Shown piece after piece: positions 10,717-61,200 of a stretch of DNA of 64,000 nt. Numbering within the stretch: position 1 is the first letter of the stretch; every line of letters starts with the position of its first letter. A program made the position numbers and the translations under genes. Source of the stretch: Nanobdellota archaeon (GTDB taxonomy: Archaea > Nanobdellota > Nanobdellia > Pacearchaeales > GW2011-AR1); contig JAUYMA010000003.1 of NCBI GenBank assembly GCA_030698805.1, positions 12,167 through 76,166 of the forward strand, given 5' to 3'. A model generated the notes under the pieces. That model ran no database searches. It was not told where the DNA came from and saw nothing but the letters and a program-made list of their open reading frames with translations.

Positions 10717-10758
10717 AAAGATGAAAATACCCTCAATAATTAGGCAGGAAAAGAAAGA

Positions 10759-10766
10759 TTTAAATA
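10759..10766 (+). promoter_or_regulatory. TATA-like box upstream of the EF-1alpha gene
   Basis: TTTAAATA about 40 nt upstream of ATG 10802. The same TTTAAA(T/A)A element recurs upstream of many genes in this window. Confidence 0.45.
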
Positions 10767-10801
10767 CCCCTTAGTTTAGAAAATATTACATAATTATTAA
10801 A

Positions 10802-12744: not shown

Positions 12745-14550
12745 TTATTGTATCTTTACGTTGTCAACTCCAGGAGGAGTTACTGGTCCTAATTTGGCTG
12801 AAGGAGAGTTTGCAGGATCATATCCTTTTTTATTTGATTTTATTAGGTAAAGGATCAACATTGTTATTGCTACTAAGATTATCAGAATTACCAGTCCGAT
12901 AATAATATGGGGGAGGATGCTCTTACCAGATTTACTTGATTTGGAAGCACATACTTGAAGTTCGGAGGGTTTTCCATCTGGAATGCCGCAACTATTTGAA
13001 TCAGTGCATAACCTTGTTTGATTCCCATTCTTTCCACATGAAGACCAATTACCACAAATCCAATTAGGAGAACATGGGGCGACGCAGGCCTGCAACTCCA
13101 AAGGCTCAACAGTTAAATTGTTGCAATTGTTGGCATCTACGCAAGTTCTTATTTGATTCCCATTCATACACAGACTCCATTCAGTGCAATTCCAGCTTGC
13201 GATGCAAGATAATTCAGAGGCGCTTTGCGATGCCTCTTTGACAGCAGAATGGGCCAAACCTGAGATTGAGAATCTAGAACCTGATATTGCACAATTATAA
13301 GTTGAGTTGCTGCCGGGGCAAGGAACAATTAATTCAGAAGCAGCATCACACAATGGAGATATTTCTGAAATGGAAGAAATTGTGGCATCTTTTATGCAGA
13401 CTGCATTTGAAGCCGCATCAATTTTATCGAGGTAGGCTGTTTTAGAAACGTCTAATCCTGAGATGATGAGATAACTAAAGAGAGAGGTTGAATTCTGTTT
13501 CTCTATCTTTATTTCCGAGAAATTTAAGCCCAGGGAGAAATTATAAGTTAGGCTAATCAAGGTTGTGGAATTCTCCTTAAACTCTAAAGGCAAATTCTCT
13601 CTGTAAATTTGAGTATCATTTAATGGAATATTGTTTACGTAGATAGATAAATTGCCCAGGTTAACTTTGGTAACTGAATCCTGATTTCCATGTAGCAAAT
13701 CTGAAGAGGCAGCACAGGAAAGAGTGAGATTTTCAGGAGCCACATAATTATTTGCAGGGAAGAAAGCCTTGCAGTTGTTACTATCATTAAACCATGCTGT
13801 TAAGTTATTGGTGGTCTCGTTACAAGTCATATTTGTCTGTGTCCAAATCGGACTGCAGCTAGAAATAGTGGAATTCTGATAACCAAACATTACTAGCGAG
13901 TGATTTGCAGCAACACTTACCATGGATCCTTCTTGCAGATCAATAGTAGAAGACTTGTAGACAGTCATATTATCATAGAAGTTGTAATATGTCTGCCCAT
14001 CTTGCTGTTTAGCCTCATAAGAAGGGACGGTTATCTTGAATACTGATCTAAATTCAGTATCAGCTCCAAAGGAAGAAGTTATAGTAGTTATATTTTCATA
14101 AGGCGCTAATGCCACTGACAATAATATCCAAATACCTGGAATACTTTCATTTGACAGCATACTTGAGAAATTCGTAGCAAGGTCGCTAGAGATATTTCCC
14201 TTGAACGCATAAATCTGGGAAGAGTTGAAAGAAATATTTATTCCACTTATTGGCAACGAGTATCCGGCCAAAATAAAGAATTGATTACTTTTGTTCTTAA
14301 AAGCTCTGAATTCTGAACAGTTATTTGATTCATTAACAATTATCCTAAGATTTGTCGACGGCTCTTGGAAAAGCGCATTCCATTTAGCGATAATATTTTG
14401 ATTTGTGCAATTAAGAGAAGATGGATGGGAATAAATCGCATTTCCAGTAAGATTAATACCTCCTAGCTTAGAATCTCTAGTAAAGAAATAAATCAAAGAG
14501 GCACATATTAGAATAAGCAAAATTAATACTAACACCTTCCCTTTTTTCAT
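12745..14550 (-). CDS. membrane-anchored surface glycoprotein with Cys/Trp-rich repeats
   Basis: N-terminal signal or anchor (VLVLILLILICASLIYFF) and very many N-x-S/T sequons. Two tandem roughly 40-aa Cys/Trp repeats, then a C-terminal TM (IIIGLVILIILVAITMLILYLI) and a short cytoplasmic tail. Confidence 0.6.
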   Translation of the reverse strand: MKKGKVLVLILLILICASLIYFFTRDSKLGGINLTGNAIYSHPSSLNCTNQNIIAKWNALFQEPSTNLRIIVNESNNCSEFRAFKNKSNQFFILAGYSLPISGINISFNSSQIYAFKGNISSDLATNFSSMLSNESIPGIWILLSVALAPYENITTITSSFGADTEFRSVFKITVPSYEAKQQDGQTYYNFYDNMTVYKSSTIDLQEGSMVSVAANHSLVMFGYQNSTISSCSPIWTQTNMTCNETTNNLTAWFNDSNNCKAFFPANNYVAPENLTLSCAASSDLLHGNQDSVTKVNLGNLSIYVNNIPLNDTQIYRENLPLEFKENSTTLISLTYNFSLGLNFSEIKIEKQNSTSLFSYLIISGLDVSKTAYLDKIDAASNAVCIKDATISSISEISPLCDAASELIVPCPGSNSTYNCAISGSRFSISGLAHSAVKEASQSASELSCIASWNCTEWSLCMNGNQIRTCVDANNCNNLTVEPLELQACVAPCSPNWICGNWSSCGKNGNQTRLCTDSNSCGIPDGKPSELQVCASKSSKSGKSILPHIIIGLVILIILVAITMLILYLIKSNKKGYDPANSPSAKLGPVTPPGVDNVKIQ

Positions 14551-18097: not shown

Positions 18098-18262
18098 ATG
18101 CAGAATTCAAGCATAAGAAGGCAAATTGTCATTACAAAGAAAATTGCCAAGCATGGCAAGCAATCAGTAGTTGTTATTCCCAGGGCTGTGGAAAGTCAAT
18201 TGAAACCTGGCACCTTAGCTAAATTTACCATTGATGTATTGGAGGAATCAAAAAATGATTAA
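18098..18262 (+). CDS. small AbrB/SpoVT/MazE-like protein (module copy 1)
   Basis: Hand-translated 54-aa ORF absent from the track (MQNSSIRRQIVITKKIAKHGKQSVVVIPRAVESQLKPGTLAKFTIDVLEESKND). It has a swapped-hairpin-like pattern (K..S..V.IP......L.PG). Paralogues lie at 35880-36047 and 36154-36312. Confidence 0.6.
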   Translation: MQNSSIRRQIVITKKIAKHGKQSVVVIPRAVESQLKPGTLAKFTIDVLEESKND

Positions 18263-19859
18263 TTCTTTACAAACTCAAAGAGCTACATTAGAAGGAGTAA
18301 TCAATTCTGAGAGATATACTGTTAAATCTTTGCTTGGCAAGGGCACATGGGGAAGAGTTTATCGAGCTGAGGATTCTCAATTGAGAATAGATGTAGCAGT
18401 CAAGGTATTGGACCCCTCTCCTTTGGCTGAAGATCAGATGAGGCATCGCCAACTTACTGAAGAACGCATCATAAAGAATGAAGCTCTTGAATTAACTGCT
18501 TGTTCTCATGTTGTGCCTAGAATGTTTGCAGTTGATAAAAATGGAAAGCCTTTCATTGTCATGCCATTATACAAAAATTTTCTCTCTGACAAGATTGAGC
18601 AAGATGGATCGCAATTATTCTTTAGGCAAGGTCTGCAGGAAAGCGATATTGTGCATTATATGAGAGATATCTCCTTAGGACTGGGAGAGTTGCACACCAA
18701 ATTAAGCAGGGTGCATGGAGATTTGAAACCAGATAATCTTGCTTTAGATTCTGAAGGCAATGTTCTTGTAAATGATCTCGGAACTTCCACTTGTGCGTCT
18801 TTAGGCTGGAGCTTGTCGCCAAGAGATAATATGGGGTTTATCTATACCCGCGCCCCAGAATGTTTTGCTAAAGATAATCAGAGGCTAAGCCATCCTACTA
18901 AAGAATCAGATGTGTGGGGATTTGGAGCATTAGCATACAGATTGTTTACTGGCAGTTATCCTTTAGAACCTGAATTTGATGGGAATAATCCAAACAAAGT
19001 CATAGAAGAGCTTGGTGTAGATGGAGGAAACAGGCTCATGAAAAATAAAGTCAGAAATGTGCCTGAAAAATTTAGAAAATACTTAAGAGAATGTTTGAAC
19101 TTTACTCCTTACTTAAGATTTCACGATGGAATACACGCTAACCAGTCCCTTCAAACACTTATTGAAAGCCGCACTCCTGCTGCAATTTTAAAGAAGAGCT
19201 TGCAAAGGGCGGCTTATATTACCGTGCCTTCTGCTCTTGTGGGATTGGGATTATATATGGGAATGGTCCATGAGCCTCAAGACTTAACCATGCCGCAAGT
19301 GAAGATGGAGGGTTACCTTTCAGTAGACAATGATATGCTTGCTGAGGGGGAGAGAATTGTTTTTGATAAAGAAAACATACCTCGTCTTCCTGTTCCTAAA
19401 CTATTTCAAGTGGGCCACCAAGCAGAAATGCGAAAAGCAACAAAAAATAGATACGCGGCATATTTGCTAAAGACTTATGTGCAGACATTTCAAGATATCC
19501 GGCAAGCTTTTGAAGTTCCATTCGTGATAACCGCTCAACATGATACCTGGAGCGGCTATACAACTGATGCAGAAAAACAAGTCCGAGGAATGTATAATGG
19601 TATTTTCTTTGTTATAGCTAGAAACATTGAAGTGGCATTAACTCAAAGCAAGACTCCTAAAGGTACAGTCGATTTGGAAGACGTATGCGCTATAAGCCGT
19701 GTTGGCATTGATAAAGTAAATGAAGCGAGAAGGGCAGCCAATAGTTTTGATTTTAATGACTATATTTATGCAAGGAACAAACATGGGGATAGAATTATAG
19801 GGGAAAGAGATGAAGAATTTGTAAAAACCTGGTTAAGTTATATTAATTTAAATCTTTAA
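18255..19859 (+). CDS. membrane-spanning Hanks-type Ser/Thr protein kinase (module copy 1)
   Basis: LLGKGTWGRVY (Gly loop), VAVKVL, HGDLKPDNLAL, VNDLGTS and TRAPE. One TM (ITVPSALVGLGLYMGMV) followed by a roughly 190-aa C-terminal domain. Start set to ATG 18255, in an 8-nt overlap (ATGATTAA) with the small ORF. Confidence 0.85.
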   Translation: MINSLQTQRATLEGVINSERYTVKSLLGKGTWGRVYRAEDSQLRIDVAVKVLDPSPLAEDQMRHRQLTEERIIKNEALELTACSHVVPRMFAVDKNGKPFIVMPLYKNFLSDKIEQDGSQLFFRQGLQESDIVHYMRDISLGLGELHTKLSRVHGDLKPDNLALDSEGNVLVNDLGTSTCASLGWSLSPRDNMGFIYTRAPECFAKDNQRLSHPTKESDVWGFGALAYRLFTGSYPLEPEFDGNNPNKVIEELGVDGGNRLMKNKVRNVPEKFRKYLRECLNFTPYLRFHDGIHANQSLQTLIESRTPAAILKKSLQRAAYITVPSALVGLGLYMGMVHEPQDLTMPQVKMEGYLSVDNDMLAEGERIVFDKENIPRLPVPKLFQVGHQAEMRKATKNRYAAYLLKTYVQTFQDIRQAFEVPFVITAQHDTWSGYTTDAEKQVRGMYNGIFFVIARNIEVALTQSKTPKGTVDLEDVCAISRVGIDKVNEARRAANSFDFNDYIYARNKHGDRIIGERDEEFVKTWLSYINLNL

Positions 19860-20772
19860 CTTCTTTCGCTATAAGCAGTTCGCTGAATAAGGGACTTGTT
19901 CCTATCTGAATTAAACGGTAAATCTCTCTAATGTAAGAAAGTAAAACTGCCTCTTCTCCCCTTGCAGATTTTATAGCTTCTAGACATTTACCAAAATGAT
20001 ATTTCTCTTTTCCTGAATTTATCTTATGAATTGCATTCTCATCTTTTCTTAAATAAGCCTCGTAATAAAGCGAGAAATAATTCTGCAATTCTTTTACGAG
20101 ATTTTTTGTTTCTTTTCCACATTTAACTTTTTTACTGGCAGCGTGAAGATAAGTATAAGATATTGCATGCCCTATATGAGTTAAAAAAGTTAGCAATTCC
20201 CAAGCTAATGCAGGATTTCTTTCCTCCTGCTCTTTCGTTAATATACGCCTACAGAAAAGAACAAATTTATCATGCTGGTCTCTCAACTCAGTTATATCTT
20301 GGAGATGTTTAAACTCTCCTTTTTCAGTGTCTCTATTTAAGATTTCAATAGTCTCCTGGATGATTATGAAAAGTCTTCTTAGGAGCACATCATATTTTTG
20401 GTCTGTTGGCTCAGAGAGATTTTCCAGAGTGCATTTATTCGCGGTTCTATCAGTCAGCTCAAATCCTAGTAAAAGGGGTAAAGTTGCTTTAATTTCTTTA
20501 AATGACTTTTCATCCAGATTTTCTATGGTAATTGCATCAAATCCTCTTCTGTAAAGATGAGTTAAGAGTGCCCTTACATCTGATCTTGCCTCATTATCTA
20601 AGACAACTAAGGTCATCTTCTTTTTTAGCACTGCTGATTGAATAATTAAAGAAGTATCTTTCTCCTGCAACCGAATTTTATCTCCTTCTTTAAGGCCTTT
20701 TTTATCCACCCATGATTTAGGAAGATAAATAGTGTAACCTCCTCCCCCTTGTTTGATGAGTGTTCTTTCCAT
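19843..20772 (-). CDS. AbrB/SpoVT-domain plus PhoU-like regulator (module copy 1)
   Basis: N-terminus MERTLIKQGGGGYTIYLPKSWVDKKGLKEGDKIRL is an AbrB/SpoVT fold pattern. It is followed by a helical, PhoU-like body with the ...FCRRIL... motif shared by all three copies. The 3' end overlaps the kinase 3' end by 17 nt. Confidence 0.75.
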   Translation of the reverse strand: MERTLIKQGGGGYTIYLPKSWVDKKGLKEGDKIRLQEKDTSLIIQSAVLKKKMTLVVLDNEARSDVRALLTHLYRRGFDAITIENLDEKSFKEIKATLPLLLGFELTDRTANKCTLENLSEPTDQKYDVLLRRLFIIIQETIEILNRDTEKGEFKHLQDITELRDQHDKFVLFCRRILTKEQEERNPALAWELLTFLTHIGHAISYTYLHAASKKVKCGKETKNLVKELQNYFSLYYEAYLRKDENAIHKINSGKEKYHFGKCLEAIKSARGEEAVLLSYIREIYRLIQIGTSPLFSELLIAKEVKDLN

Positions 20773-20986: not shown

Positions 20987-22468
20987 ATGGCTAAAAATGA
21001 AGCAATGGAAGCCCTGCAGAGGGAGAATCTGCTCTTAAAATCAGAAGTAGAGAGATTATCATCTCCACCGTTTAGAGCAGGGACAGTGCTAGACACTGGA
21101 AAAAAGACAGTCAGGGTATTTGTTGATGGCTCTGGCACTTATGAAATCGGACATAATGAATCTCTCAATGGAAAAGTTAAGAGGGGTTGCAGAGTGACAT
21201 TGAATAAAGACCTCGCAATAGTGGACTCTTCGGAATTTAGCGACTTAGGAAGTCAGGTAGCGACAGTTGATGAAGTTGAGCCAAACAGAATAAGAGTTGA
21301 ACTAAAAGGCGAACATAAATATGTATTGAGTATATCTCCCGATGTCCGGGCCGGAGATGAGGTTGTTCTTGATTCTTCTGGACTGCTTGCTATAGAAAAA
21401 CTTTCTAGGAAGAAGACGAAATATAATCTTGAGAGAGTTCCTCAAATACCTTGGGACCGAATTGGAGGATTAGAAGAAACTATCAAGAGTATACGTTCTG
21501 AGATTGAGCATCCTTTTGTTCATCGAGAAGTATATGCAAGATATGGCAGTTCTCCTATCAAAGGAGCTTTGCTTTTTGGCCCTCCAGGATGTGGGAAGAC
21601 TCTTGTAGCCAAGGCTATTGCATACAATCTTGCAAAAACTACGGGACACGAAGATGGCCATTTCATTAGCATAAAGGGACCTGAAATCCTTAATATGTGG
21701 CTTGGTAATAGCGAGGCAAATGTGAGGAGAATTTATCAGTCTGCTCGTGAAGTTGCAAATGGGGCTCTAGTGGTTATCTTTATCGATGAAGCGGAATCTA
21801 TCTTTAGAGTAAGAGGAAGCAGCGTGTCTACTGATGCTTATGATTCTATTGTGCCTCAGCTCTTAACTGAAATGGATGGATTAGAGGAGAATCATAATAT
21901 TATCACTTTGCTTGCTACCAATAGAGAAGACTCTATTGATCCTGCAGTCTTAAGACCTGGCAGAATAGACCGAAAAATAAAGATACCTCGCCCTTCAAGG
22001 GAAGGTGCTTACGAGATTTTTGGAATCTATCTTAAGGATAAACCTGTCCAAGGATTGTTTAAAGGCAGCAAAAGAGAGAGCCTGACACATGAAGCTGTTG
22101 AGAGAATCTATTCTCCAGAGCCAGTTTGTACTGTTGTCAATCCTCATGGCGAGGCCTTAGGCTCATTCACATATAGAAATATGATTAGTGGAGCGATGAT
22201 CAAAGGAATCGTAGATCGCGCTTGCAGATATGCTATCGAAAGAGAAACTGTCGGCGGCACAATCGGGATTGGTAAAGAAGATATTTCGAGAGCATTAGAT
22301 ACTGAACTTAGAGAAAACTTAGAATTAGATCAATTTTTTGTCGAGAGCGATTGGAATGATGTTTTCGGAGATAAAGGGAAGCAGATGTATGAGGCTCACA
22401 AACGCGGCTATTTACAATTTAGAAAAGGACCCGGTCAAATTCAAACAGCTGAAAGGGGGCAACAGTAA
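20987..22468 (+). CDS. ARC/Mpa-type AAA+ ATPase (coiled coil, two OB-like segments, AAA module)
   Basis: N-terminal coiled coil (EALQRENLLLKSEVERL) and two beta-rich OB-like stretches. Walker A GPPGCGKT, Walker B VVIFIDEAE, then SIFRVRGSSVSTDAYDSIVPQLLTEMDG and NREDSIDPAVLRPGRIDRKIKIPRP. These closely resemble mycobacterial Mpa / Rhodococcus ARC as I recall them. The C-terminus ...AERGQQ has no HbYX-type tail. Confidence 0.85.
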   Translation: MAKNEAMEALQRENLLLKSEVERLSSPPFRAGTVLDTGKKTVRVFVDGSGTYEIGHNESLNGKVKRGCRVTLNKDLAIVDSSEFSDLGSQVATVDEVEPNRIRVELKGEHKYVLSISPDVRAGDEVVLDSSGLLAIEKLSRKKTKYNLERVPQIPWDRIGGLEETIKSIRSEIEHPFVHREVYARYGSSPIKGALLFGPPGCGKTLVAKAIAYNLAKTTGHEDGHFISIKGPEILNMWLGNSEANVRRIYQSAREVANGALVVIFIDEAESIFRVRGSSVSTDAYDSIVPQLLTEMDGLEENHNIITLLATNREDSIDPAVLRPGRIDRKIKIPRPSREGAYEIFGIYLKDKPVQGLFKGSKRESLTHEAVERIYSPEPVCTVVNPHGEALGSFTYRNMISGAMIKGIVDRACRYAIERETVGGTIGIGKEDISRALDTELRENLELDQFFVESDWNDVFGDKGKQMYEAHKRGYLQFRKGPGQIQTAERGQQ

Positions 22469-22469: not shown

Positions 22470-22895
22470 ATGAGAACATTAGAACAAACCCCTGAAAATC
22501 AGAAGTCTGGAGATCAGAAAGAATCGGGATTATCATCTATGGATGTAATGCCAATTATAGTTACTGCCAGACCTAGCTTGTCTGAAGCAGAGAATGCATT
22601 AATGAGAAGACTTCCTGCTTCCTATACGGAAAGAACTGTAAGAGATGTCTTAAGTTATATCATGGGATCTGCTGTAGCTGATACAGAAGCTTCAACAATG
22701 AAGAGTTTAAGAAACGAACTTGGAGCGGCTGGTAGCTATATCCTTGTTAATGGGAAAGAAGCAAAGCTGACTGACAGAGTAGAAGGATATCTTGTTGATA
22801 GAACTGAAACTGTCGAAGGCAGACCAATAAAATATCGACAGCTTGAGATAGAAATTTCTGCGGTTCAACAGGGAGGTTATCAGAGAAGATTCTAG
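22470..22895 (+). CDS. ubiquitin-like (beta-grasp, ThiS/MoaD/SAMP-like) protein precursor with GG plus 5-aa tail
   Basis: 141 aa starting 1 nt after the AAA stop. The N-terminal roughly 40 aa are polar and disordered-looking. The C-terminal part reads ...SYILVNGKEAKLTDRVEGYL...QLEIEISAVQQGG-YQRRF. The diglycine is at codons 135-136 (22872-22877). Confidence 0.6.
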   Translation: MRTLEQTPENQKSGDQKESGLSSMDVMPIIVTARPSLSEAENALMRRLPASYTERTVRDVLSYIMGSAVADTEASTMKSLRNELGAAGSYILVNGKEAKLTDRVEGYLVDRTETVEGRPIKYRQLEIEISAVQQGGYQRRF

Positions 22896-22922: not shown

Positions 22923-23900
22923 ATGAAAAATTTAAATTTACTTTTAATTGGAGAAGAACCTTCAGAGAGGCCAATAGTAGAAAAAGGCCTTGGCCTCGAT
23001 GAAGTGCATATCTCTAGCTATGCACATGATAAAGCATTCAAATATGCTGAATTAATAATACAAAGAAAGGGAAGAAGTCTTGAAGTTGGAGGCTTTTTAA
23101 CCACGCCTAAAGAAGCAAGAGACCGAGTTGCCAGAGATGCATTTCTTGCCCGAGATCAAGAAGTTACTTCTGTTTCTTATATATTGAGTCCTCAAGATGT
23201 TAAAAAAGCTAAACAAGAGCTTGACAAAATGGGACAGAGAATTGTGGGGTGGTGGCATAGTCACGGACGTATGAGAACTTTCCACTCTGATATTGATGAT
23301 AAAAATCAGATGGTCTTGCTTAATCAAATAGCGCCTTCTAATTATTCTGTAATAAGACAAGAAGAAACAAGAGGTTTACAAAGCAGGTTAGAAGGGAACT
23401 CTCTTATTTTCTGGGATCCTGCTAATCCAAGAAAAGTATACTCTCTAGATATCAAGAATGATAATCCTGAGCTTATAGCTAAGCGATTACGCATAACTAA
23501 AGAGGAGCAGATTGGATTCGCTTATAGCTTTGTTGTTAATCATCATAGATGGTTAAATTTTAGAGTACCTTATTGTGAAATAGCCACTAGGGAAGTGTGT
23601 TCTGGATGCTTAAATGATAATGCTAAAAGTAAGACAACTGGATACAAAATATTTGATGAAGGAGATTTTGAAATTGATGAAGAACAACTTATCGTAGAAA
23701 TAGATGAACGAGTACATTTAGCTGGGACAAGGAGGAAGTATTTCTTGCCTGAAGATTTTGAAAGGGAAAGGGCTGCAGGCACGCTGACGAAACCTGAATT
23801 TGCCTTAGGCACCTCTCCAATTTACCCTGCTCATGCAAGCAATCTTGATTTGACTCAGTCTCCACCTATAAATTATGCTAAGAGGTATTGGAAAAAATGA
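22923..23900 (+). CDS. JAMM/MPN+ metalloprotease (JAB domain)
   Basis: Complete JAMM signature: E in LEVGGFL, then H-x-H-x7-S-x2-D in WWHSHGRMRTFHSDID (23256-23297). The C-terminal extension has a Cys cluster, CEIATREVCSGC. Confidence 0.85.
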   Translation: MKNLNLLLIGEEPSERPIVEKGLGLDEVHISSYAHDKAFKYAELIIQRKGRSLEVGGFLTTPKEARDRVARDAFLARDQEVTSVSYILSPQDVKKAKQELDKMGQRIVGWWHSHGRMRTFHSDIDDKNQMVLLNQIAPSNYSVIRQEETRGLQSRLEGNSLIFWDPANPRKVYSLDIKNDNPELIAKRLRITKEEQIGFAYSFVVNHHRWLNFRVPYCEIATREVCSGCLNDNAKSKTTGYKIFDEGDFEIDEEQLIVEIDERVHLAGTRRKYFLPEDFERERAAGTLTKPEFALGTSPIYPAHASNLDLTQSPPINYAKRYWKK

Positions 23901-25306
23901 TAGAAAAAAATATTAGATATGATCGACAAGAAAGAATCCAAAATTGGGACCAAAGTAAATTAACCAAAGCGAGAGCAATACTTATTGGCGGAGCACAATT
24001 AACTCATTTTACTGCGGCATCGCTAGCGGCTCTTGGAATAGGAAATATAGAAGTGTATATTCCTCAAGGAGAAAAAACACAGGGATTCCTGACACCTTTA
24101 GGGGGAGAACCTAGAGATCTTGAAAGCAAATTAAGGCAAATGAATCCCTCCTCCTCTATAAAAGTAGGAACATTTGATACAGAGCTTAACTTGACTCAGA
24201 ACCGCCCAGATATATTGCTTGATCTTACTAACTCGCCAGAGATGAAAGATAAATCAATTGGAATTTCTTCTTTGTATGGTATTCCAATAATCTCTGCTTC
24301 GAATGGTAAAACTGGAGGAGCATTCTACTTAGGGACACTGGGAGAGATACCTGCTAGTGCACGACTAGAAGATTATGCAGGTTCTACCCAAGGGGGATTT
24401 TCAAGTGAGATTATGGCTGGAATGATAACTGAAGAAGTAAGAAAAAGTTTAATGCCTTTAAGAGAAGGAGAAAAACCAGTTAAAAGCTTGGCATATCAGG
24501 GCACTGCTGAAAGAAGATTTGCTAGAGAAGGAGATTTTGAAGCAGACCCTTATGAAAACATTTCAGAAAAAAGAATATTAATCGTTGGTGCAGGAGCATT
24601 AGGCAACTTTACAGCACTGGGGGCTGCTCTTGAAGGAATAGGAAATATAGATATATTAGACTTTGATGAGGTTGAGGCCCACAACCTTAATAGACAAATA
24701 CTATTTTACGATGCAGTTGGAAGAAAGAAAGCAGAGGCTTTGGCCGCAAAGGTAAGAGAAATTAATCCTCATGCAGAGGTAAGAAGTCTTGTAGGAAAGC
24801 TTGATGAGAATACTATTTATTTTGAGAAAAATAGACCTGACGTGATATTAGATTGTGTGGATAATTTTGCGACAAGAGCCCTAATTAATTACTTTGCCGT
24901 GAGATATGGCATACCTCTCGTTTCAGGAGGCACAAATTCTCAATCTGGACAAGTTGTAGTATACGAACCTGGAATGAGTTCGTGCCTTCAATGTAAATTA
25001 GATGTGGAGAAAACTCTTGCCCTCTCATTACAAGGAAGCAAATGTACAAACTCTCCTGATCCTAGCGTAATTATGACAAACGAAATCGTTGGGGGTATGA
25101 TGATTGGAGAGACACTCAAAGTCATGGACAAAGGATATGGCACGCCTGTCTCCAAGATTCTTAAATATGATTCGAATGTCCCTATCCGGGGCGGATTAAT
25201 TGGAGCAGGAGACCCCTGCGATTGTACGCGCGGAGATATGAAGAAGTGGTTGACAGGAGTCAAAGAGAGACTTGAAGATATTTCGGAGGCATCTCATGGC
25301 GTTTAG
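23897..25306 (+). CDS. E1-like activating enzyme with two fused ThiF/MoeB-type domains
   Basis: First half has RYDRQ plus a degenerate nucleotide loop (ILIGGAQLT). Second half is a canonical adenylation domain: ILIVGAGALGN, DFDEVEAHNLNRQILF and DCVDNFATR, with paired Cys motifs CLQC and CDC. ATG 23897 forms an ATGA overlap with the JAB stop; the track start at 23888 is TTG. Confidence 0.85.
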   Translation: MIEKNIRYDRQERIQNWDQSKLTKARAILIGGAQLTHFTAASLAALGIGNIEVYIPQGEKTQGFLTPLGGEPRDLESKLRQMNPSSSIKVGTFDTELNLTQNRPDILLDLTNSPEMKDKSIGISSLYGIPIISASNGKTGGAFYLGTLGEIPASARLEDYAGSTQGGFSSEIMAGMITEEVRKSLMPLREGEKPVKSLAYQGTAERRFAREGDFEADPYENISEKRILIVGAGALGNFTALGAALEGIGNIDILDFDEVEAHNLNRQILFYDAVGRKKAEALAAKVREINPHAEVRSLVGKLDENTIYFEKNRPDVILDCVDNFATRALINYFAVRYGIPLVSGGTNSQSGQVVVYEPGMSSCLQCKLDVEKTLALSLQGSKCTNSPDPSVIMTNEIVGGMMIGETLKVMDKGYGTPVSKILKYDSNVPIRGGLIGAGDPCDCTRGDMKKWLTGVKERLEDISEASHGV

Positions 25307-26114
25307 ATTAGGAGAAGAAGTTATTATCAGAAAAGCATCGGCAGGTCAAGGTAATTATTATCATGGTGGGACAGTAAAACAAGTTCCTCTCGGATCTCGC
25401 GGAAGAATAGTTGAGATGGATGCTCCTGAATCCATTAGGCTTTTTTTGGAAGCCAACCCTAAAGCCGAAGTAAATCCTAGAAAGAGAAATTTTTGGGATA
25501 AAGTAATAGAATATCTTGGCATAAAGGAAAAGTTCCTTGAAAAGTCTTCGTACTGGCTTGTTCATCCTGCGGAGATTTCTCCAAGATCCGATCCTTCTCC
25601 AAAACCCCAGATTTCAACATCAAATCTACAGCTACTCTTGAGCAATAATACTATTGAGGCAGTTAACGATGCAGACAAATCTGCTTTTCAACCTGGATTT
25701 AACGTTAGAGAAGAATTTGCAGTGTGGGTAAGAAAACAATTCCCTCAATTAGAAGATTATGTGAAAAGAAAGGAGAAATATAAAGAATTAGAAGAAAGAA
25801 GAGATGAAGTTATGTCCGGAGCTAGAAAAGCATATGATCATGCTATGCAAACTGCTGGAGGTTGTGCAAGAACTGGATTTCAAGTTTCTTTTGCAAGACT
25901 GATAGGCGATAAAAACACTCTCACAGGTCTTGAAGGATCTGCTTTAGATGCCCCTGATCGTTCAGTAAAATATTTTACTATGAAAGAGGAAGATACCGAA
26001 GGAAGCGAATCAGAGCTATTTCCCTCTAATTTGAATAAATTTGTAATAACTATAGAACGCTCTTCTCTCAGTCTCGGTAGTAAAGATAAACACTATGGGA
26101 CAAGGAGGAAATAA
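25296..26114 (+). CDS. unknown-family protein P1 (Ubl-operon paralogue family)
   Basis: 272 aa, with a GGAGG SD-like site 7 nt upstream and an 11-nt overlap with the E1 stop. Shares GNYYHGGTVKQVPLGS, FQPGFNVREEF-x-VWVR-x-QFP and EERRDEV-x9-H-x7-C with P2 (and P3). Confidence 0.6.
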   Translation: MAFRLGEEVIIRKASAGQGNYYHGGTVKQVPLGSRGRIVEMDAPESIRLFLEANPKAEVNPRKRNFWDKVIEYLGIKEKFLEKSSYWLVHPAEISPRSDPSPKPQISTSNLQLLLSNNTIEAVNDADKSAFQPGFNVREEFAVWVRKQFPQLEDYVKRKEKYKELEERRDEVMSGARKAYDHAMQTAGGCARTGFQVSFARLIGDKNTLTGLEGSALDAPDRSVKYFTMKEEDTEGSESELFPSNLNKFVITIERSSLSLGSKDKHYGTRRK

Positions 26115-26115
26115 A

Positions 26116-26910
26116 ATGAATGGAAATACTTTGGGTGAGATGTTATTGGCTGCAGAACCTTTTGATATAGGTCAAGAAGTCGCTATAAGGAGAGCCTTGA
26201 ATGGGAAAGGCAATTATTATCATGGTGGGACAGTAAAACAAGTTCCCTTAGGTTCAAAGGGCACTATCATTGAATTAGGAGGACAGAGCATAAAACTTCT
26301 TTTAGCGAGAAAGCCTAATATTGAAGCTATTCCTGAAAAGAAAACATTATGGAATACGATAAGAAGCTACTTCGGCCTGAAAGAGATAAGAGCTGAGCGT
26401 CCTGATAATGAAAATTATTGGACAGTACATCCTGACGAAATTGCTTCAAAAAATCCTTCTATTCCAAGACCCAAAGTTGAAGAAGCAAATCTTGAAAATC
26501 TCCTAAAAGGAAATGTTGTTGAAACAGTGAATGAATCTGGCAGCACTGCTTTTCAACCTGGATTTAACGTTAGAGAAGAATTCGTAGTGTGGGTAAGGGA
26601 ACAGTTTCCTGATTTAGAAAAATATGCAGGGGGAAGAAAGTCTTATTCAGAGCTCGATGAACGTAGAGAGGAAGTAAGACTCGCTGCGATAAAAGCCTGC
26701 CAACACGGAGTTAAGACCACTAATAGTTGTGTTAAAGGATATTTTGAAGATCATCTCTCTTATTTCAGAGGCTCTGACGGTGGGAGATTCTATAATAATT
26801 TGTGCGCATTAACCCAGCTTATTGAACAAGTTGCAGTCAATATAGGCCGGTCGTCTAATTGGCATTACGGAACTAATTTGAAAAGAGGGAGGAGAAAAAA
26901 CAATGAATAA
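26116..26910 (+). CDS. unknown-family protein P2 (paralogue of P1)
   Basis: 264 aa from ATG 26116, with AGGAGG upstream and 1 nt after the P1 stop. An alternative ATG is at 26095. Same motif set as P1. Confidence 0.6.
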   Translation: MNGNTLGEMLLAAEPFDIGQEVAIRRALNGKGNYYHGGTVKQVPLGSKGTIIELGGQSIKLLLARKPNIEAIPEKKTLWNTIRSYFGLKEIRAERPDNENYWTVHPDEIASKNPSIPRPKVEEANLENLLKGNVVETVNESGSTAFQPGFNVREEFVVWVREQFPDLEKYAGGRKSYSELDERREEVRLAAIKACQHGVKTTNSCVKGYFEDHLSYFRGSDGGRFYNNLCALTQLIEQVAVNIGRSSNWHYGTNLKRGRRKNNE

Positions 26911-27676
26911 AAAGATTTTAGATAAAATGCTGTTGGCTCCTGAGCCTGAAGTCGGACACTCTTCTGAAAAGGGATTTAATCCTATTTTTAATGTGAGGGA
27001 GGAGTTCCCCCTATGGGTGCAAGAACAATTTAAGCATTTAACCAAACATGCAAAGAGAAAAATGGCTTATGAGGAACTTGAAAAGCGTAGAGATGAGGTC
27101 TATCAGGCTGCGCTTGGGGTGGTTAAACATGGTTTGATGTCTACTGATGCCTGTGCAACAGCAAGGTTGCGAGAAGGATGGGAAGATTTTGAAAGAGGAT
27201 TTGGCGAACAAAGTAATCCCGCGGGAAGAGCTGGAAGTCTAGAGAAATTTGTAGAAGCAATAAAAGACTTGTCAGTAAGTCTTGGTGGGAATTCCCACTA
27301 TACTGAAGCAGGCATTTTCTTAGGAGGCAATAATTATAAAACTGGGAACCTTAAAGCATTTGTTTATAGAATAGGCGATAAAAACGGAGAGAACTCTGAA
27401 TATTTTATTCTTGAGGAACCTCAGACATTTGAGGGAGATATTCAGCCCGCCCTCATCGGAGAACTTACTCATTTAACAAATAAAGATGTAACTATTCTTA
27501 GAAGGCTTGCTGACTACTTCAAAGGTCCCGAAATTGATTTTATTGAGCGTGCTGATCGCATTGTACCTGAAGAAGGAAGCAGACCTTGGGCAAGCTCATT
27601 TTACGGAGTTGCTGAAAGATTAAAGGGCTATGGAAGGGGTTTATCTTCATGGCTGGGAGGGGAAGATGAACTTTGA
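26903..27676 (+). CDS. unknown-family protein P3 (paralogue lacking the N-terminal GNYYHGG domain)
   Basis: 257 aa with an 8-nt overlap (ATGAATAA) with P2. Keeps MLLAPEP, GFNPIFNVREEFPLWVQEQF and EKRRDEV-x9-H-x7-C. The RIGDKN motif sits in a different order than in P1. Confidence 0.6.
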   Translation: MNKKILDKMLLAPEPEVGHSSEKGFNPIFNVREEFPLWVQEQFKHLTKHAKRKMAYEELEKRRDEVYQAALGVVKHGLMSTDACATARLREGWEDFERGFGEQSNPAGRAGSLEKFVEAIKDLSVSLGGNSHYTEAGIFLGGNNYKTGNLKAFVYRIGDKNGENSEYFILEEPQTFEGDIQPALIGELTHLTNKDVTILRRLADYFKGPEIDFIERADRIVPEEGSRPWASSFYGVAERLKGYGRGLSSWLGGEDEL

Positions 27677-27998
27677 ATATCAATTTTTTCTGGGCAATGA
27701 TGAATATGGCCTGGATATTGCCCTAAAATATAATGCTTTTAGAGAAGAAAATTCTGCTAGAGAAGACATGAAATTATCAGATAGAATGAATTATATGGGA
27801 AGATTTTGTGCTGAAGCGGGATTAAGACACCCTGATGTTTTTTTGGAAATTGAGGATGCAAGAGAAAAGCAAAGATTGAAGGAAATGAGGAAGAGTGCTA
27901 TTGCTGGAATAATGGTAAGGGGAGGAAGCGTTGCTGCTGGAGATTCTCTTAGGAGGAGAGTTGAGCAGAAAATTAAAGAAAATGGCAAATTTGATTGA
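27666..27998 (+). CDS. hypothetical protein (110 aa), Ubl operon
   Basis: ATG 27666 overlaps the P3 stop by 11 nt. No family recognised. Confidence 0.45.
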   Translation: MNFEYQFFLGNDEYGLDIALKYNAFREENSAREDMKLSDRMNYMGRFCAEAGLRHPDVFLEIEDAREKQRLKEMRKSAIAGIMVRGGSVAAGDSLRRRVEQKIKENGKFD

Positions 27999-29103
27999 TA
28001 GAACCGTAGAAGGAAGAATGGCTTATATTCAGAGGTTAGAAGCTAAAGTTAAGAAAGCTGTTAGCGGGGATGTTGATGAGGATTATAGAAAGCTTATTGC
28101 TGAACCGTTAGAAAAAGCTAGAGGCATACCATATTTTGATGATAAACATGCAGCCGTATCTGGAAAACCATTCACATGGGGAAATTTATCAGTAATTCCT
28201 GAAATTGCTGGAATTAGGAATATACACCACCATACTCTTGCAGGGCAGATAGAGCAAGTTAAGGCTTGTGTTGATAATTATTTTAGAATGCTGTTAGAAC
28301 CAATCGCATCCATGCCTTTCTTTTATGCTGATCCTGCATACGATGTTGAGCCAAATTGTGTTGGAGCCAGCCAAATTGTTAGTCGTATTTATGGTTATGA
28401 GCACCCCATTGATGATTTAGAGATGCTTGTAGTTAATTCATCTAAAAGGCGAGATATCTTGCTTGATAAGTTGAGGAACTTTGATAAGCTACCTGGAGCA
28501 ATTGTAGCTGGAGAGAGATGGGTTAGCAGCAATTTTGATGCTTTTAGCAAGGATTTCAGAGAGGAAGAATTAAGAGATAAATTACTTGACCAGGTCTTAT
28601 TGATAGAAGAGAGCAATCATGTTGTTGTGAAAAAAAGAGGGGGAGAAGTATTTGACTTTCCTATTGAAAGGGATAATATAAAGAGGCATGAGGTATGCGG
28701 AATTAGGGAGGGCCTTTGGGTTGCCGGAGTATCTAGCCTTATTGCTCTATACCAATACTTGAATCAGGATGTGGAGAGCCAGTGGAAAGAAATTAGGAAT
28801 AGAGTTGGAGAGGTCAGCAAATCTGCACGAGTTACCGTAGATTATTCTTTAGGGAGAGAGTGCTTTGATGAATTAAGGGAAATTTTTGGAGAGGACTTGC
28901 CTGCAAGATATGTTATGGTTGAATTAAGCTCGAGAAGAAATGAAATGGATTTTGTCAGATATGCATTGGATAGAGTGAGAAGAGAATATCCTTATCCTAA
29001 GGCCCTGGAAGTTATTGGAAAAAGGTATCTTGGGGAAGAAGGATATGGTGAACTTGCTGCAGAAATTTTGAAAGCTGAAAAAGGAGGGGAAGATGAAAAA
29101 TAA
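27982..29103 (+). CDS. hypothetical protein (373 aa), Ubl operon
   Basis: ATG 27982 overlaps the previous stop by 17 nt. No family recognised; it contains a possible nucleophile context, EPNCVGASQ. Confidence 0.5.
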   Translation: MANLIDRTVEGRMAYIQRLEAKVKKAVSGDVDEDYRKLIAEPLEKARGIPYFDDKHAAVSGKPFTWGNLSVIPEIAGIRNIHHHTLAGQIEQVKACVDNYFRMLLEPIASMPFFYADPAYDVEPNCVGASQIVSRIYGYEHPIDDLEMLVVNSSKRRDILLDKLRNFDKLPGAIVAGERWVSSNFDAFSKDFREEELRDKLLDQVLLIEESNHVVVKKRGGEVFDFPIERDNIKRHEVCGIREGLWVAGVSSLIALYQYLNQDVESQWKEIRNRVGEVSKSARVTVDYSLGRECFDELREIFGEDLPARYVMVELSSRRNEMDFVRYALDRVRREYPYPKALEVIGKRYLGEEGYGELAAEILKAEKGGEDEK

Positions 29104-29419
29104 AATAGAAAGAAAACCTTTTGTAATCACTAACTGCCATAAACGCAACTTTAGGGATTGGGTGCAAGATCAGTTTCCTGAAATAAAAAAACATTCTTTT
29201 AGTGATAGTCCTCCTTATACTGCCTTAGAAGAACGCTTTGATGAAGTCCATGCCGCAGCACGACAAGTCTTCAATATTATTTTCTCACGTTCTGATCATG
29301 ATTTACAACGCTATTATTCCCAAGATCGAACTGCTTTAGGTCAAGCTCATCAAAGAAGAGACATCCGAGCGTATGCTTGTGCACTTGATGCTTTTCTTGG
29401 GGCGATTAAGGAGGAATAA
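29093..29419 (+). CDS. unknown-family protein P4 (short paralogue, no H/C pair)
   Basis: 108 aa with an 11-nt overlap. NFRDWVQDQFPEI ... ALEERFDEV aligns without gaps to the P1-P3 core, but the conserved His and Cys are absent. Confidence 0.5.
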   Translation: MKNKIERKPFVITNCHKRNFRDWVQDQFPEIKKHSFSDSPPYTALEERFDEVHAAARQVFNIIFSRSDHDLQRYYSQDRTALGQAHQRRDIRAYACALDAFLGAIKEE

Positions 29420-29420
29420 A

Positions 29421-30467
29421 ATGGACTTATATCAATTAATTACTCAGGCAGTTGGAGGATTCTCGGTTGGTTTAGGGGCCTCTTTGAATTACAAAAGATA
29501 TAATGAAGCAGTGAATAGCATGGAATATGCAAAATTAATTGATGAATCTAGATTGGGAAAAGAATTAGAAAGCAAGGGTTTGACTGAGGAAAAATTAAAA
29601 AATTGGCATGAAGCAAATCGCAGACTTAATATCTTATCTCCTTATCTTTATGGCTTTGGATTTTCAGTAGCCACTAGCATAGCCTCGTTTGCCCAATGGA
29701 ATTTTGGTGAAAATGTTTTGATTTCAGTACCATCTGCTTACCTCGGCTTTGCTGCTGGAGTCTTGACTCATAGAATTAAAAATATGAAATTTAGGGAGGA
29801 GATGCAAATAGCCCAAGAGATGAAGAGAAATCCAGATTCTATTGAAGCTCTTCTTACTGAAAATGAAAGATCAACTATCAGGACTTCCTTGGAACAAATT
29901 GAGCAAGGAATGTTTGAAGGAAGCTTTAACCCTCTTACTTCAAAGCCGCTTTTCCTAATCTACTCTACTGTAATCGAGAGAAATAAAGTTTACACGCCTT
30001 TAGTTACCCAATGGAGCTTAAAGGAAATTGAAAAAGCAATATCTTCCGGCAAATTACAAAAAGATCTTAAAGATTTCTATGAAACTCCTCTTCCCATTGG
30101 GGGGAGCATTGCTACTGCCTCCCTTAACTCTCTTGTAATAGAAAGGCCGACTCGTGTCTTTGTAAGGGAAGGGGATAAGTTTTATTCTCTAGATGTTTCC
30201 TGGAAGAATATTCGAATTATAGAACAAGATGAGACTAAAGAAGTAAGCATATGTGGCACTGCTCCGGATCTAAGAAAGATCCAAGAAGAATCTTGGAATC
30301 CTGATTACAAAACCCTGGCGCATATTGTTGAAGAGCATGGCAAAGATGCAAATAGAGTTATAATGCTCGCTCCTGAGAATACTTCTCTGGGACTTCAGGG
30401 AGCGATATTAACACAAAATTATGTGGAAGAACTAGTAAGAAGACTGAAGAATGAGAAAAAGAACTAA
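29421..30467 (+). CDS. membrane protein with C-terminal soluble domain, last gene of the Ubl operon
   Basis: ATG 29421 is 1 nt after the P4 stop, with AAGGAGG upstream. Hydrophobic segments are LITQAVGGFSVGLGASL, YLYGFGFSVATSIASFAQW and LISVPSAYLGFAAGVLT, followed by about 220 soluble residues. No family recognised. Confidence 0.5.
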   Translation: MDLYQLITQAVGGFSVGLGASLNYKRYNEAVNSMEYAKLIDESRLGKELESKGLTEEKLKNWHEANRRLNILSPYLYGFGFSVATSIASFAQWNFGENVLISVPSAYLGFAAGVLTHRIKNMKFREEMQIAQEMKRNPDSIEALLTENERSTIRTSLEQIEQGMFEGSFNPLTSKPLFLIYSTVIERNKVYTPLVTQWSLKEIEKAISSGKLQKDLKDFYETPLPIGGSIATASLNSLVIERPTRVFVREGDKFYSLDVSWKNIRIIEQDETKEVSICGTAPDLRKIQEESWNPDYKTLAHIVEEHGKDANRVIMLAPENTSLGLQGAILTQNYVEELVRRLKNEKKN

Positions 30468-32818: not shown

Positions 32819-33730
32819 ATGCAAAGAAAGCTTATTGGCCAGGGTTTAGGAGGAATTACTGTTCACTTACCTAAAAGATGGATCGATGCTCATCACTTGA
32901 AGAAAGGAAATGAGATAGACATAGAAGATTCTGAAGGAAAATTGATAATATCCCCTAAAAAGATAAATAAAGATAAAAAAGAAACTTCTATCAGGCTCTC
33001 AGGATTAGAAGAATCTCTTATTAGAACACTTATTGCAAATACTTACAGGTTAGGATACGACTCTATCAAGGTAGATTTTGAAAATGAAAAACAATTTCAA
33101 ATATTAAATGAGATAATTCAAAAAAGATTAATTGGTTTTGAGATAATCAAAAAAGATTCCGGAAGCTGCATTGTAGAAAATGTGACTGAACCCGAAGAAG
33201 ATCAGTTTGGTAATATTATGCAGAAGCTCTTTCTTAATATAGATACATTGCTGGAAAATATTAATCAACTATGCTCCTCGGATAAAGCTCAGATTAGCGA
33301 GAGTATTGATGAACTAGATGATAGGATACTGAAATATGACAATTTCTGCAGGAGGATATTATTAAGAAGGAGATTTGATGAAAAATCTGCTTTGCATTTA
33401 GCTTTCTTGACTATGATTATACATGGAGAAAGAGAATTATATTATCTTTCTAAGTCTATTGGCAAAGGTATGAAGTGCTCTTCAGAAACTCTTAAGATTA
33501 TAGGTGGTATTGCTCAAATTAACAAACTTATTCAAGAAGCCTATAATAAGAAAAAATTTGATAATCTAGCAGATATTAATGCTATTGGAAGGAGAATTAT
33601 CTATAAAGAAGGCTATAAATTAATGGAAAATAAAAAAGGAAAGGAGCTTATTGTGATACATCATCTCTTAGCATGCACCAGGGATTTTTACCAAGCAGTC
33701 AGCCCATTGAGCGGATTATTGTTCACGTGA
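32819..33730 (+). CDS. AbrB/SpoVT-domain plus PhoU-like regulator (module copy 2)
   Basis: MQRKLIGQGLGGITVHLPKRWIDAHHLKKGNEIDI N-terminus and a helical body with YDNFCRRILLR. The 3' end overlaps the kinase 3' end by 15 nt. Confidence 0.75.
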   Translation: MQRKLIGQGLGGITVHLPKRWIDAHHLKKGNEIDIEDSEGKLIISPKKINKDKKETSIRLSGLEESLIRTLIANTYRLGYDSIKVDFENEKQFQILNEIIQKRLIGFEIIKKDSGSCIVENVTEPEEDQFGNIMQKLFLNIDTLLENINQLCSSDKAQISESIDELDDRILKYDNFCRRILLRRRFDEKSALHLAFLTMIIHGERELYYLSKSIGKGMKCSSETLKIIGGIAQINKLIQEAYNKKKFDNLADINAIGRRIIYKEGYKLMENKKGKELIVIHHLLACTRDFYQAVSPLSGLLFT

Positions 33731-35887: not shown

Positions 35888-36047
35888 TTTCTTTCTCCTC
35901 CAGATTTTCATGAATGAGATCTATCTTCAATTGAGTAAGCATGCCTGGCTTAATTATTCCTTCAAGATCTTTTGGAATTACAATTACTGATTGCCTGCCG
36001 TGTTTTGCAATTCTTTTAGTTATAATAATTGATTTTGGGCCTTTCAT
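35880..36047 (-). CDS. small AbrB/SpoVT/MazE-like protein (module copy 2)
   Basis: Hand-translated 55-aa ORF absent from the track (MKGPKSIIITKRIAKHGRQSVIVIPKDLEGIIKPGMLTQLKIDLIHENLEEKENA). Confidence 0.6.
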   Translation of the reverse strand: MKGPKSIIITKRIAKHGRQSVIVIPKDLEGIIKPGMLTQLKIDLIHENLEEKENA

Positions 36048-61077: not shown

Positions 61078-61124
61078 TTAACTTTTAAGAAAATTAATCA
61101 TTTAAAGCTTACTTAAAATAAAAA

Positions 61125-61200
61125 TAGCGCGGGTGGGATTTGAACCGCACGACCTCGAGGTTATGGGCCTCGCGAGCACTCCAGGCTGCTCTACCGCGCT
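61125..61200 (-). tRNA. tRNA-Met (CAU), initiator-like (A1:U72), with C33 and a bulged T stem
   Basis: Hand-folded. AGCGCGG-UA-GAGC-AGCCUGGAGU-GCUC-G-CGAGG-CCCAUAA-CCUCG-AGGUC-GUG(C)GG-UUCAAAU-CCCAC-CCGCGCU-A. No encoded CCA. Confidence 0.75.

Follow-up and report, generated by a model that had tools for sequence, protein, structure and literature searches.

A candidate ubiquitin-like modifier precursor in an archaeal gene cassette with a JAMM protease, an E1-like enzyme and an AAA+ unfoldase

It is not settled how tagging by ubiquitin-like proteins originally came to be linked to ATP-dependent unfoldases; in archaea, only an indirect route leads so far from SAMP or Urm1 tags to PAN, Cdc48 or the proteasome. 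The question is touched by a small gene in a 64,000-nucleotide (nt) stretch of a Nanobdellota archaeon genome (contig JAUYMA010000003.1, positions 12,167–76,166, forward strand), here called the window; coordinates below are those of the window unless another locus is named. The gene belongs to a cassette (Table 1) in which neighboring genes specify a candidate modifier, its predicted maturase and deconjugase, a eukaryote-style pseudo-dimeric activating enzyme (E1) and an unfoldase, all in the tiny genomes of DPANN archaea. What does its product do? On balance we favor the view that this product is a ubiquitin-like modifier (Ubl) in precursor form, from a previously unannotated beta-grasp family of DPANN (Nanoarchaeota-type) archaea; the modifier would be trimmed by the neighboring protease, activated by the E1, attached to target proteins and acted upon by the unfoldase.

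Gene, family and predicted fold

Direct reading of the sequence gives GGA as codon 135 (22872–22874) and GGT as codon 136 (22875–22877), followed by TAT CAG AGA AGA TTC (YQRRF) and the TAG stop codon, just as an initial annotation made from the letters alone had described. The likely start is the ATG at 22470, one base past the stop codon of the AAA+ gene (22466–22468), because homologues begin at the equivalent Met; a mechanical open reading frame (ORF) list also offers an in-frame TTG at 22338, within the preceding gene. Minus-strand ORFs overlapping the gene are without support.

Table 1. Features of the cassette in window coordinates
Feature	Coordinates	Strand	Length	Remarks
Mpa/ARC-like AAA+ ATPase	20987..22468	+	493 aa	Coiled coil of ~25 aa, two OB domains, AAA module, C-terminal domain
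Ubl precursor gene	22470..22895	+	141 aa + stop	ATG at 22470; TAG at 22893-22895
N-terminal polar leader	22470..22553	+	residues 1-28	Predicted disordered; low model confidence (pLDDT <50) for 1-24
Predicted beta-grasp core	22554..22871	+	residues 29-134	AlphaFold2; helical insert 50-85; strand with near-invariant Asn94 (VNG)
Diglycine G135-G136	22872..22877	+		GGA GGT; predicted mature C-terminus; only invariant columns among 51 sequences
C-terminal pro-peptide YQRRF	22878..22892	+		Predicted to be removed; family tails 0-13 aa, variable
JAB/JAMM metalloprotease	22923..23900	+	325 aa	N-terminal catalytic domain, then ~200-aa uncharacterised extension
Single-chain pseudo-dimeric E1	23888..25306	+	472 aa	Degenerate N-terminal ThiF-like domain; active C-terminal MoeB/ThiF-like domain
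SH3-helical paralogue 1	25272..26114	+	280 aa	SH3-like barrel and helical domain with near-invariant His and Cys
SH3-helical paralogue 2	26095..26910	+	271 aa	AlphaFold2: N-terminal small beta-barrel, C-terminal helical bundle; pLDDT ~79-93, mostly >=82
SH3-helical paralogue 3	26903..27676	+	257 aa	Helical domain and distinct C-terminal domain
Truncated degenerate helical-domain copy	29093..29419	+	108 aa	Conserved Cys absent

A word-indexed search of 5.8 billion proteins returned six close relatives at 58–67% identity, and an exhaustive hidden Markov model (HMM) search of 1.84 billion cluster representatives returned 62 proteins, 42 of them at E≤1e-10 and almost all 115–150 amino acids (aa) long; these family representatives were clustered at 50% identity. 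All 62 lack annotation, and the NCBI name of one family member is simply 'hypothetical protein [archaeon]'. When 51 full-length members are aligned, column identity averages 28% and the two glycines G135 and G136 are the sole invariant columns; Asn94 (in the 'VNG' strand) and Tyr122 are conserved in at least 90%. Y, L or F usually comes directly after the diglycine (GG), and in one member nothing follows it. Sequences in the family that lack GG are mostly truncated fragments, together with a few marginal full-length matches. The conservation of GG exceeds chance, and an invariant GG with a disposable tail is the pattern expected of a Ubl precursor; an orthologue alignment had been proposed in the initial annotation as a check, and both the constancy of GG and the variability of the tail are borne out. 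We also considered whether the tail might be an HbYX-type proteasome-gate motif and rejected this by inspection, the distance of the Tyr from the C-terminus being inconsistent (YRF, YQRRF, LYRLLR, SA).

The Ubl protein has no match in Pfam (E≤0.1), NCBIfam (E≤0.01) or PADLOC, and in particular none to Pfam ThiS PF02597 or its relatives or to Pfam ubiquitin PF00240. Comparisons by hhalign from the 51-sequence profile gave probabilities of 1.9% against SAMP2 and 0.4% against Escherichia coli ThiS (these query sequences entered by hand) and 0.6% against ubiquitin, so that membership by sequence in the ThiS, MoaD, SAMP or ubiquitin families was rejected; a search of PDB sequences with the family profile gave noise only. 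The protein had earlier been said to follow a ThiS/MoaD/SAMP pattern. What survives of this is that the fold is shared, as are the GG and, in the VNG strand, a near-invariant Asn; membership in that family does not, given the missing Pfam and NCBIfam matches and hhalign probabilities below 2%. We conclude that the Ubl represents a new family at the sequence level, one missed by current profile libraries.

Support for the fold comes from an AlphaFold2 model built on a 7-sequence alignment. Its mean predicted local distance difference test (pLDDT) score is 75.8, with values of ~81–94 over residues 31–130 (10-residue block means) and below 50 at both ends, residues 1–24 and 134–141, which are predicted to be disordered. 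The predicted elements follow the order beta29-35, beta44-48, helices 50-85, beta90-93, beta96-98, a short helix 104-107, beta109-115 and beta118-130; this is a beta-grasp topology in which the helical insert is enlarged and a hairpin at the C-terminal end leads into the GG tail. Among the leading Foldseek matches in PDB are SUMO-like domains, Atg8/GABARAP, the ubiquitin-like domain of TBCE and a ubiquitin variant, along with the Ras-binding domain of PI3K, and matches among the viral structures of BFVD include v-ubiquitin and giant-virus ubiquitins; probabilities reach 0.99, and the top matches are mostly ubiquitin-like folds. Structure modeling was another check suggested at the outset, and it predicts the anticipated beta-grasp, for which we regard the support as moderate. 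The model also bears on the polar disordered leader that had been put at ~40 residues: the leader is present, but it is shorter, at ~24–28 residues, residues 29–48 already belonging to the predicted fold.

The adjacent protease and E1

A JAMM gene had been noted directly downstream of the Ubl gene, and it is indeed there, starting after 27 nt. Its product matches Pfam Prok-JAB (E=7.2e-8) and, weakly, the NCBIfam desampylase model (E=4e-6), and its JAMM signature, E54...H112-S-H-x7-H-S-x2-D, is complete, as it is in each of the eight orthologues and in every clade examined. In one clade (L015 9891–12674 and L016 5077–7857) the JAB protein reaches ~927 aa, about threefold the normal length; its JAMM domain is N-terminal and the remainder is uncharacterised.

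We propose that this protease would remove YQRRF and so expose Gly136. Trimming of this kind is familiar from the beta-grasp carriers of the QbsE/QbsD/QbsC and CysO/Mec+ systems, in which residues after GG are removed by a JAMM protease ahead of adenylation by a MoeB-like enzyme. SAMPs, on the other hand, are made with a free GG end, whereas the Ubl family described here carries a pro-peptide. Experimental precedent for pre-processing by a JAB comes from bacterial Bil operons, where BilC trims the Ubl BilA just after its glycine (PMC10557695). The two systems are alike in having a Ubl with one or more residues past the reactive Gly, which the operon's JAB removes in Bil and is predicted to remove here, and in having a JAB with an intact JAMM site adjoining the Ubl. 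By analogy with BilC and with HvJAMM1 of Haloferax volcanii, the protease may also reverse conjugation.

The E1 gene overlaps the JAB gene by 13 nt. Its product matches Pfam ThiF strongly over residues 216–429 (E=2.1e-52) and weakly in the N-terminal half (E=0.0023). The N-terminal domain is of the inactive adenylation type, with no nucleotide loop, yet it keeps an invariant RYxRQ; this trans-acting motif is present in the N-terminal domain only, as expected for the division of labor in a pseudo-dimer. Among the invariant residues are R10, Y11, R13, Q14, GAGALG, NLNRQ, DCVD, C366, C386, C444 and C446. The zinc site has the form CxxC...CxC, the second Cys of CxxC being lost in locus L014, and the invariant Cys386 sits 20 residues past CxxC, a position equivalent to that occupied by the catalytic cysteines of ThiF and UbaA. 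The PDB matches are MoeB, ThiF, SAE2 and Uba1, the best being MoeB and ThiF, and the active domain, at ~257 aa, is of MoeB size. We propose that this single-chain, two-domain E1, whose motifs are intact, would adenylate Gly136 and probably form a thioester on Cys386.

A pseudo-dimer of one inactive and one active adenylation domain is a hallmark of conjugating E1s in eukaryotes and in Bil, whereas ThiF, MoeB and Cap2 are homodimers (PMC10557695). UbaA, the E1 of the SAMP system, is likewise a homodimeric single-domain enzyme, unlike the fused pseudo-dimer found here. In structure, this minimal E1 is placed between the MoeB/UbaA homodimers and the eukaryotic and Bil E1s. In locus L012 (7730–9168) two neighboring genes, each for a ThiF-domain protein (220 and 259 aa), take its place, and the gene equivalent to the N-terminal half matches ThiF at E=1.7e-14; this split E1 is a heterodimeric arrangement, like eukaryotic SAE1/SAE2 or NAE1/UBA3.

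The same features invite a different interpretation, that the protein is a sulfur carrier of the ThiS/MoaD/CysO/QbsE kind: GG adenylated by the E1 would be converted to a thiocarboxylate and its sulfur passed to a cofactor, a thionucleoside or a metabolite, with the JAMM protease trimming the tail or freeing an adduct. Both JAMM activities have precedents, since QbsD trims the QbsE pro-peptide and Mec+ releases the CysO adduct. The GG end, the short tail, the JAMM protease and the MoeB/ThiF-like adenylation domain are common to both kinds of system; MoeB and ThiF as best structural matches of the E1, the likeness of the near-invariant VNG-strand Asn to ThiS and MoaD, and the lack of any E2 (conjugating enzyme) among the cassette ORFs scanned with Pfam, NCBIfam and PADLOC all fit as well. 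We nevertheless judge a sulfur carrier to be improbable. The cassette ORFs scanned contain no ThiG, ThiH, MoaE, NcsA or rhodanese, nor any further domain for sulfur transfer or biosynthesis, and the Ubl has no profile similarity to ThiS or MoaD. A conserved partnership with an AAA+ unfoldase has no rationale in sulfur transfer. The pseudo-dimeric architecture of the E1, moreover, has until now been linked to conjugation, sulfur-carrier E1s being homodimers (PMC10557695). The Qbs and CysO systems differ from the cassette on the same points, namely the pseudo-dimeric E1, the linkage to an AAA+ unfoldase and the absence of a rhodanese or biosynthetic domain from the cassette ORFs. We consider the proposed maturation by the JAB, followed by activation of the Ubl by the E1, to be well supported by inference.

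A probable unfoldase partnership

Genome contigs were scanned with the 7-sequence alignment. The closest genomic relatives are metagenome-assembled genomes (MAGs) labelled 'Candidatus Nanoarchaeia archaeon' and 'Nanoarchaeota archaeon', and the run AAA-Ubl-JAB, usually followed by E1, recurs in Nanoarchaeota MAGs and in metagenomes. In the clade of the window the order is AAA, Ubl, JAB, zero to four SH3-helical paralogues, E1 and one or two further paralogues, and it is kept in every locus with enough sequence. Loci of more distant Ubl family members vary on the theme: a ClpX-like AAA gene (with GYVG pore loop), Ubl, a ~416-aa protein, JAB and E1 in L009; Ubl, a 533-aa protein, a divergent JAB, E1, a 228-aa protein and a ClpX-like AAA gene in L014; Ubl, a 437-aa protein, JAB and the split E1 in L012; Ubl, a 478-aa protein, the 927-aa JAB and E1 in L015; and Ubl, a 455-aa protein, JAB and E1 in L021. 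Locus L036 is of intermediate form, with an Mpa-like AAA gene, Ubl, a ~410-aa protein, JAB and E1. Of the 21 distinct loci, 16 have an AAA+ gene next to the Ubl gene, Mpa-like in 11 of them and ClpX-like in five.

The strongest argument that the Ubl and the unfoldase work together is that two unrelated unfoldase families fill the same slot. Because different lineages have different AAA+ families in this position, we further argue that selection acts on the pairing of tag and unfoldase itself. Functional coupling of the Ubl to the AAA+ ATPase is thus supported by synteny, and it is from synteny that we suggest the co-transcribed unfoldase, Mpa/ARC-like here and ClpX-like in sister clades, would act on the Ubl or on its conjugates. 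The ClpX/HslU-like proteins combine AAA_2 with ClpB_D2-small and have a GYVG pore loop and no evident zinc-binding N-domain; their genes lie at L009 6872–8020, L014 5662–6960, L022 10–609, L023 2–409 and L035 1814–2923, and at least one related cassette lineage is labelled archaeal.

Could the Ubl serve the ATPase without ever being conjugated, as a non-covalent cofactor, adaptor or substrate, with GG and the tail being only a processing or regulatory site? The AAA-Ubl linkage is the tightest in the cassette (a 1-nt gap here), and neither an E2 nor an E3 has been identified, which would suit such a role. But an invariant C-terminal GG and a co-conserved E1 with all its adenylation residues intact are hard to explain without activation of the C-terminus, and five loci keep Ubl-JAB-E1 without an AAA gene. 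We therefore think a purely non-covalent role very unlikely and continue with a modifier that is activated and attached.

The ATPase of the window matches the NCBIfam model TIGR03689 (pup_AAA) at E=5.9e-113, its residues 7–470 covering positions 24–508 of 512, with a score of 378 bits that is below the 504.75-bit cutoff; models for PAN score ~200 bits. It also matches Pfam AAA and Prot_ATP_ID_OB, and residues 26–467 align with Mycobacterium tuberculosis Mpa (PDB 5kwa) over its OB, AAA and C-terminal regions. The N-terminal helix ahead of the conserved Pro-Pro junction spans only ~25 residues.

The resemblance to the Pup-Mpa system of Actinobacteria is that a small modifier gene stands beside an Mpa/ARC-type ATPase gene and that a disordered N-terminal segment of the modifier could enter the pore. 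The two also differ. Pup is an intrinsically disordered protein of ~64 aa with GGQ or GGE at its C-terminus, and PafA and Dop serve its ligation, whereas the modifier here is predicted to have a folded beta-grasp core of ~105 residues with a GG tail and comes with an E1 and a JAMM protease. No match to PafA or Dop was found among the cassette ORFs with Pfam and NCBIfam, the rest of the genome not having been searched. The ATPase, unlike Mpa, falls below the TIGR03689 cutoff, has a coiled coil of ~25 aa and lacks a GQYL tail.

In the initial annotation the leader was suggested as a handle that the Mpa-like coiled coil could engage in the manner of Pup binding; this idea is not supported. The Mpa-binding region of Pup is conserved; the leader is not, being 6–53 aa long across the family (median 27 aa), rich in E, A, K, S, T and Q, unconserved in sequence and predicted to be coil rather than helix, and the coiled coil it would have to meet is ~25 residues. 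Nor does the length of the leader follow the type of AAA+ partner: family members P0024, with a 30-aa leader, and P0048, with a 10-aa leader, both stand beside ClpX-like AAA genes, so that an AAA-type-specific handle is rejected. The leader remains plausible as a segment for entry into the pore, much as Pup enters Mpa by its N-terminus, because it would be the sole free end once the Ubl is attached through its C-terminus.

Transfer, interpretation and genomic setting

The weakest step in the proposed mechanism is the transfer of the Ubl to amines of target proteins, for which the E1 might suffice, as it does in SAMP systems, or a non-canonical partner might be needed. Candidate partners are the SH3-helical paralogues with their His and Cys in the clade of the window and a ~450-aa protein with an HPF...C motif in other clades.

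The SH3-helical paralogues have no database match and might be adaptors, E2/E3 surrogates or targets. There are 2–5 copies per cassette, diverging fast between related genomes, and one-to-one orthologues of paralogue 3 end the cassette in L007 and L008; copies elsewhere lie at L007 11456–12139 and 13551–14919, L008 11410–13127 and 14538–16290, and L002 5158–7882. The SH3-like barrel bears the motif 'G..V.I....G.YYHGG....VPLGSKG', and both motif and fold recall ribosomal protein eL21. In the helical domain (FNVREEF.VWVR.QFP...) 8 residues separate the near-invariant His from the Cys, and each copy also has an HYGT motif at its C-terminal end. An E2 among these paralogues was rejected, as the model of paralogue 2 matches only eL21 and SH3 barrels by Foldseek and not the UBC fold.

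The HPF...C family, of ~360–530 aa, takes in the ~416–533-aa proteins of the variant cassettes and is encoded directly after the Ubl gene in sister clades (L009 8365–9615 and 11904–12983; L012 5145–6458; L014 447–2048; L015 8454–9890; L021 6359–7726; L036 ~10385–11614). Its invariant motif, HPF-x(6-14)-[LI]C[ML]G.Y, is preceded by a strand region 'VPE.VLK.P...YY.F' and is by eye reminiscent of the HPN...C signature of E2s. Identity as an E2 was rejected: hhalign gave 0.3% against UbcH5B (sequence entered by hand), the best local match falling on the E2 'FP.DYPF.PP' strand, and the family has no PDB or PADLOC match. The motif was not found in the window, the family is absent from the window's clade, and it shows no profile relation to the SH3-helical paralogues or to window ORFs 27931–29103 and 29373–30467.

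Rapidly diverging accessory paralogues, at 2–5 copies, are one of several reasons to ask whether the cassette serves conflict, as Bil does, placing the Ubl on viral or host-symbiont proteins with the SH3-helical paralogues as diversifying adaptors. Such a role would be compatible with the chemistry we propose. The parts list is that of Bil minus the E2, with a Ubl, a JAB and an E1 of inactive and active adenylation domains (PMC10557695); the Ubl family is patchily distributed, and a Csm6 gene is present elsewhere in the window. Against this, PADLOC gives only generic JAB, E1 and AAA models, the flanks are housekeeping in nature (DnaG, EF-2, EF-1alpha, primase and an RNA polymerase subunit) rather than a defense island, the Ubl is not found in IMG/VR viral contigs, and the cassette is syntenic across several Nanoarchaeota lineages. 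We consider an antiviral function rather unlikely. The absence of a relative from IMG/VR contigs also led us to reject a viral or mobile origin of the Ubl. Other differences from Bil are the missing UBC-type E2, no counterpart of BilB being found by the three library searches of the cassette ORFs, and the company kept by the genes: Bil is bacterial and has neither an AAA+ unfoldase nor SH3-helical paralogues, while the cassette is archaeal and has both.

Returning to a modifier that is matured, activated, attached and read by an unfoldase, several observations weigh against it. Sequence profiles tie the Ubl to no known Ubl family; the fold model was built from only those 7 aligned sequences, and its Foldseek E-values are modest (best ~1e-2 in PDB and 3e-3 in BFVD, up to 1e-1), with TM-scores of 0.3–0.65. 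A GG followed by a tail, with a JAMM protease as partner, may likewise occur in sulfur-carrier Ubls. Missing from the E1 is the CYS domain that is inserted in the E1s of eukaryotes and of Bil, which in Bil is a helical domain of ~80 aa that is set in the crossover loop and carries the catalytic Cys. The libraries named above reveal no canonical E2 in the 10 cassette ORFs, though a very divergent E2 could escape profiles. An AAA+ gene is missing nearby in 5 of the 21 loci. Finally, the ATPase orthologues have no conserved proteasome-docking C-terminus of the HbYX or GQYL type, their ends differing from one another (...ERGQQ, ...GRQSK, ...QRNVN, ...NTEST), and no proteasome gene is present among the window ORFs scanned. 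Since both a docking tail and, in those ORFs, a proteasome gene are lacking, we do not infer degradation; remodelling, extraction or hand-off to another protease are possible outputs of the unfoldase.

Comparison with known archaeal systems helps to define what is new. The SAMP/UbaA/HvJAMM1 system of H. volcanii is similar in having an archaeal beta-grasp modifier with GG, a MoeB/ThiF-type E1, JAMM deconjugation and no known E2 or E3, and the JAB here weakly matches the desampylase model. It differs in that the Ubl has no detectable sequence kinship to SAMP2, ThiS or MoaD, and in that SAMP genes do not share an operon with an AAA+ unfoldase, as the Ubl gene does. The ubiquitin operons of Caldiarchaeum subterraneum and Asgard archaea are also archaeal and likewise contain a Ubl, an E1 and an Rpn11-like JAMM protease (PMC3082918); those operons, however, have genes for a ubiquitin that can be recognised as such, for a UBC E2 and for a RING E3, and here none of the three is detectable.

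The components, a Ubl, a JAMM protease, an E1 and an AAA+ protein, are thus of known kinds. Three things are new: current profiles do not see the Ubl family; the E1 is minimal, pairing an inactive with an active adenylation domain but having no CYS domain; and in DPANN archaea the absence of a canonical E2 goes together with a conserved, family-swappable AAA+ unfoldase partnership. No description of the cassette was found in searches of the full-text literature, and the arrangement suggests a previously undescribed tag-and-unfold pathway. A bolder version, which we put forward tentatively and hold to be possible rather than likely, is that the cassette is a self-contained archaeal pathway of this kind, a third solution beside the ubiquitin-26S proteasome and Pup-Mpa, in which a beta-grasp Ubl with its own disordered initiation segment would be attached by a eukaryote-like single-chain E1 without a canonical E2 and the conjugate read directly by a dedicated AAA+ unfoldase, which is Mpa/ARC-like or ClpX-like according to lineage. 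If that is true, an unfoldase with no proteasome-docking tail would remodel or extract tagged proteins or pass them to another protease. With four core genes the system is small and should be reconstitutable in E. coli, making the coupling of tag and unfoldase directly testable.

The window is chromosomal and archaeal in character, with genes for EF-2, EF-1alpha, DnaG, SMC and Csm6. The Csm6-type HEPN protein (3445–4821, minus strand) matches the Pfam Csm6 HEPN domain at E=5.7e-24 and also has the Csm6 6H domain. The 601-aa product of 12745–14550 (minus strand) has a signal or anchor segment predicted at each end, very many N-x-S/T sequons and repeated Cys-rich modules of the form 'W.C..WS.C...G.Q.R.C.D.N.C', and is probably a glycosylated surface protein. 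Three genes encode eukaryote-type Ser/Thr protein kinases (18231–19859, plus strand; 33716–35911, minus strand; 36305–38434, plus strand). The first of these lies just upstream of the cassette, only a divergent gene for an AbrB/MazE-domain regulator (19843–20772, minus strand) coming between, and a weakly related kinase (BLASTP E=4e-7) is encoded upstream of the cassette in L008. The GC content of the window is 37%, and ARAGORN detects a single tRNA gene in its 64 kb, tRNA-Met at 61123–61202 on the minus strand.

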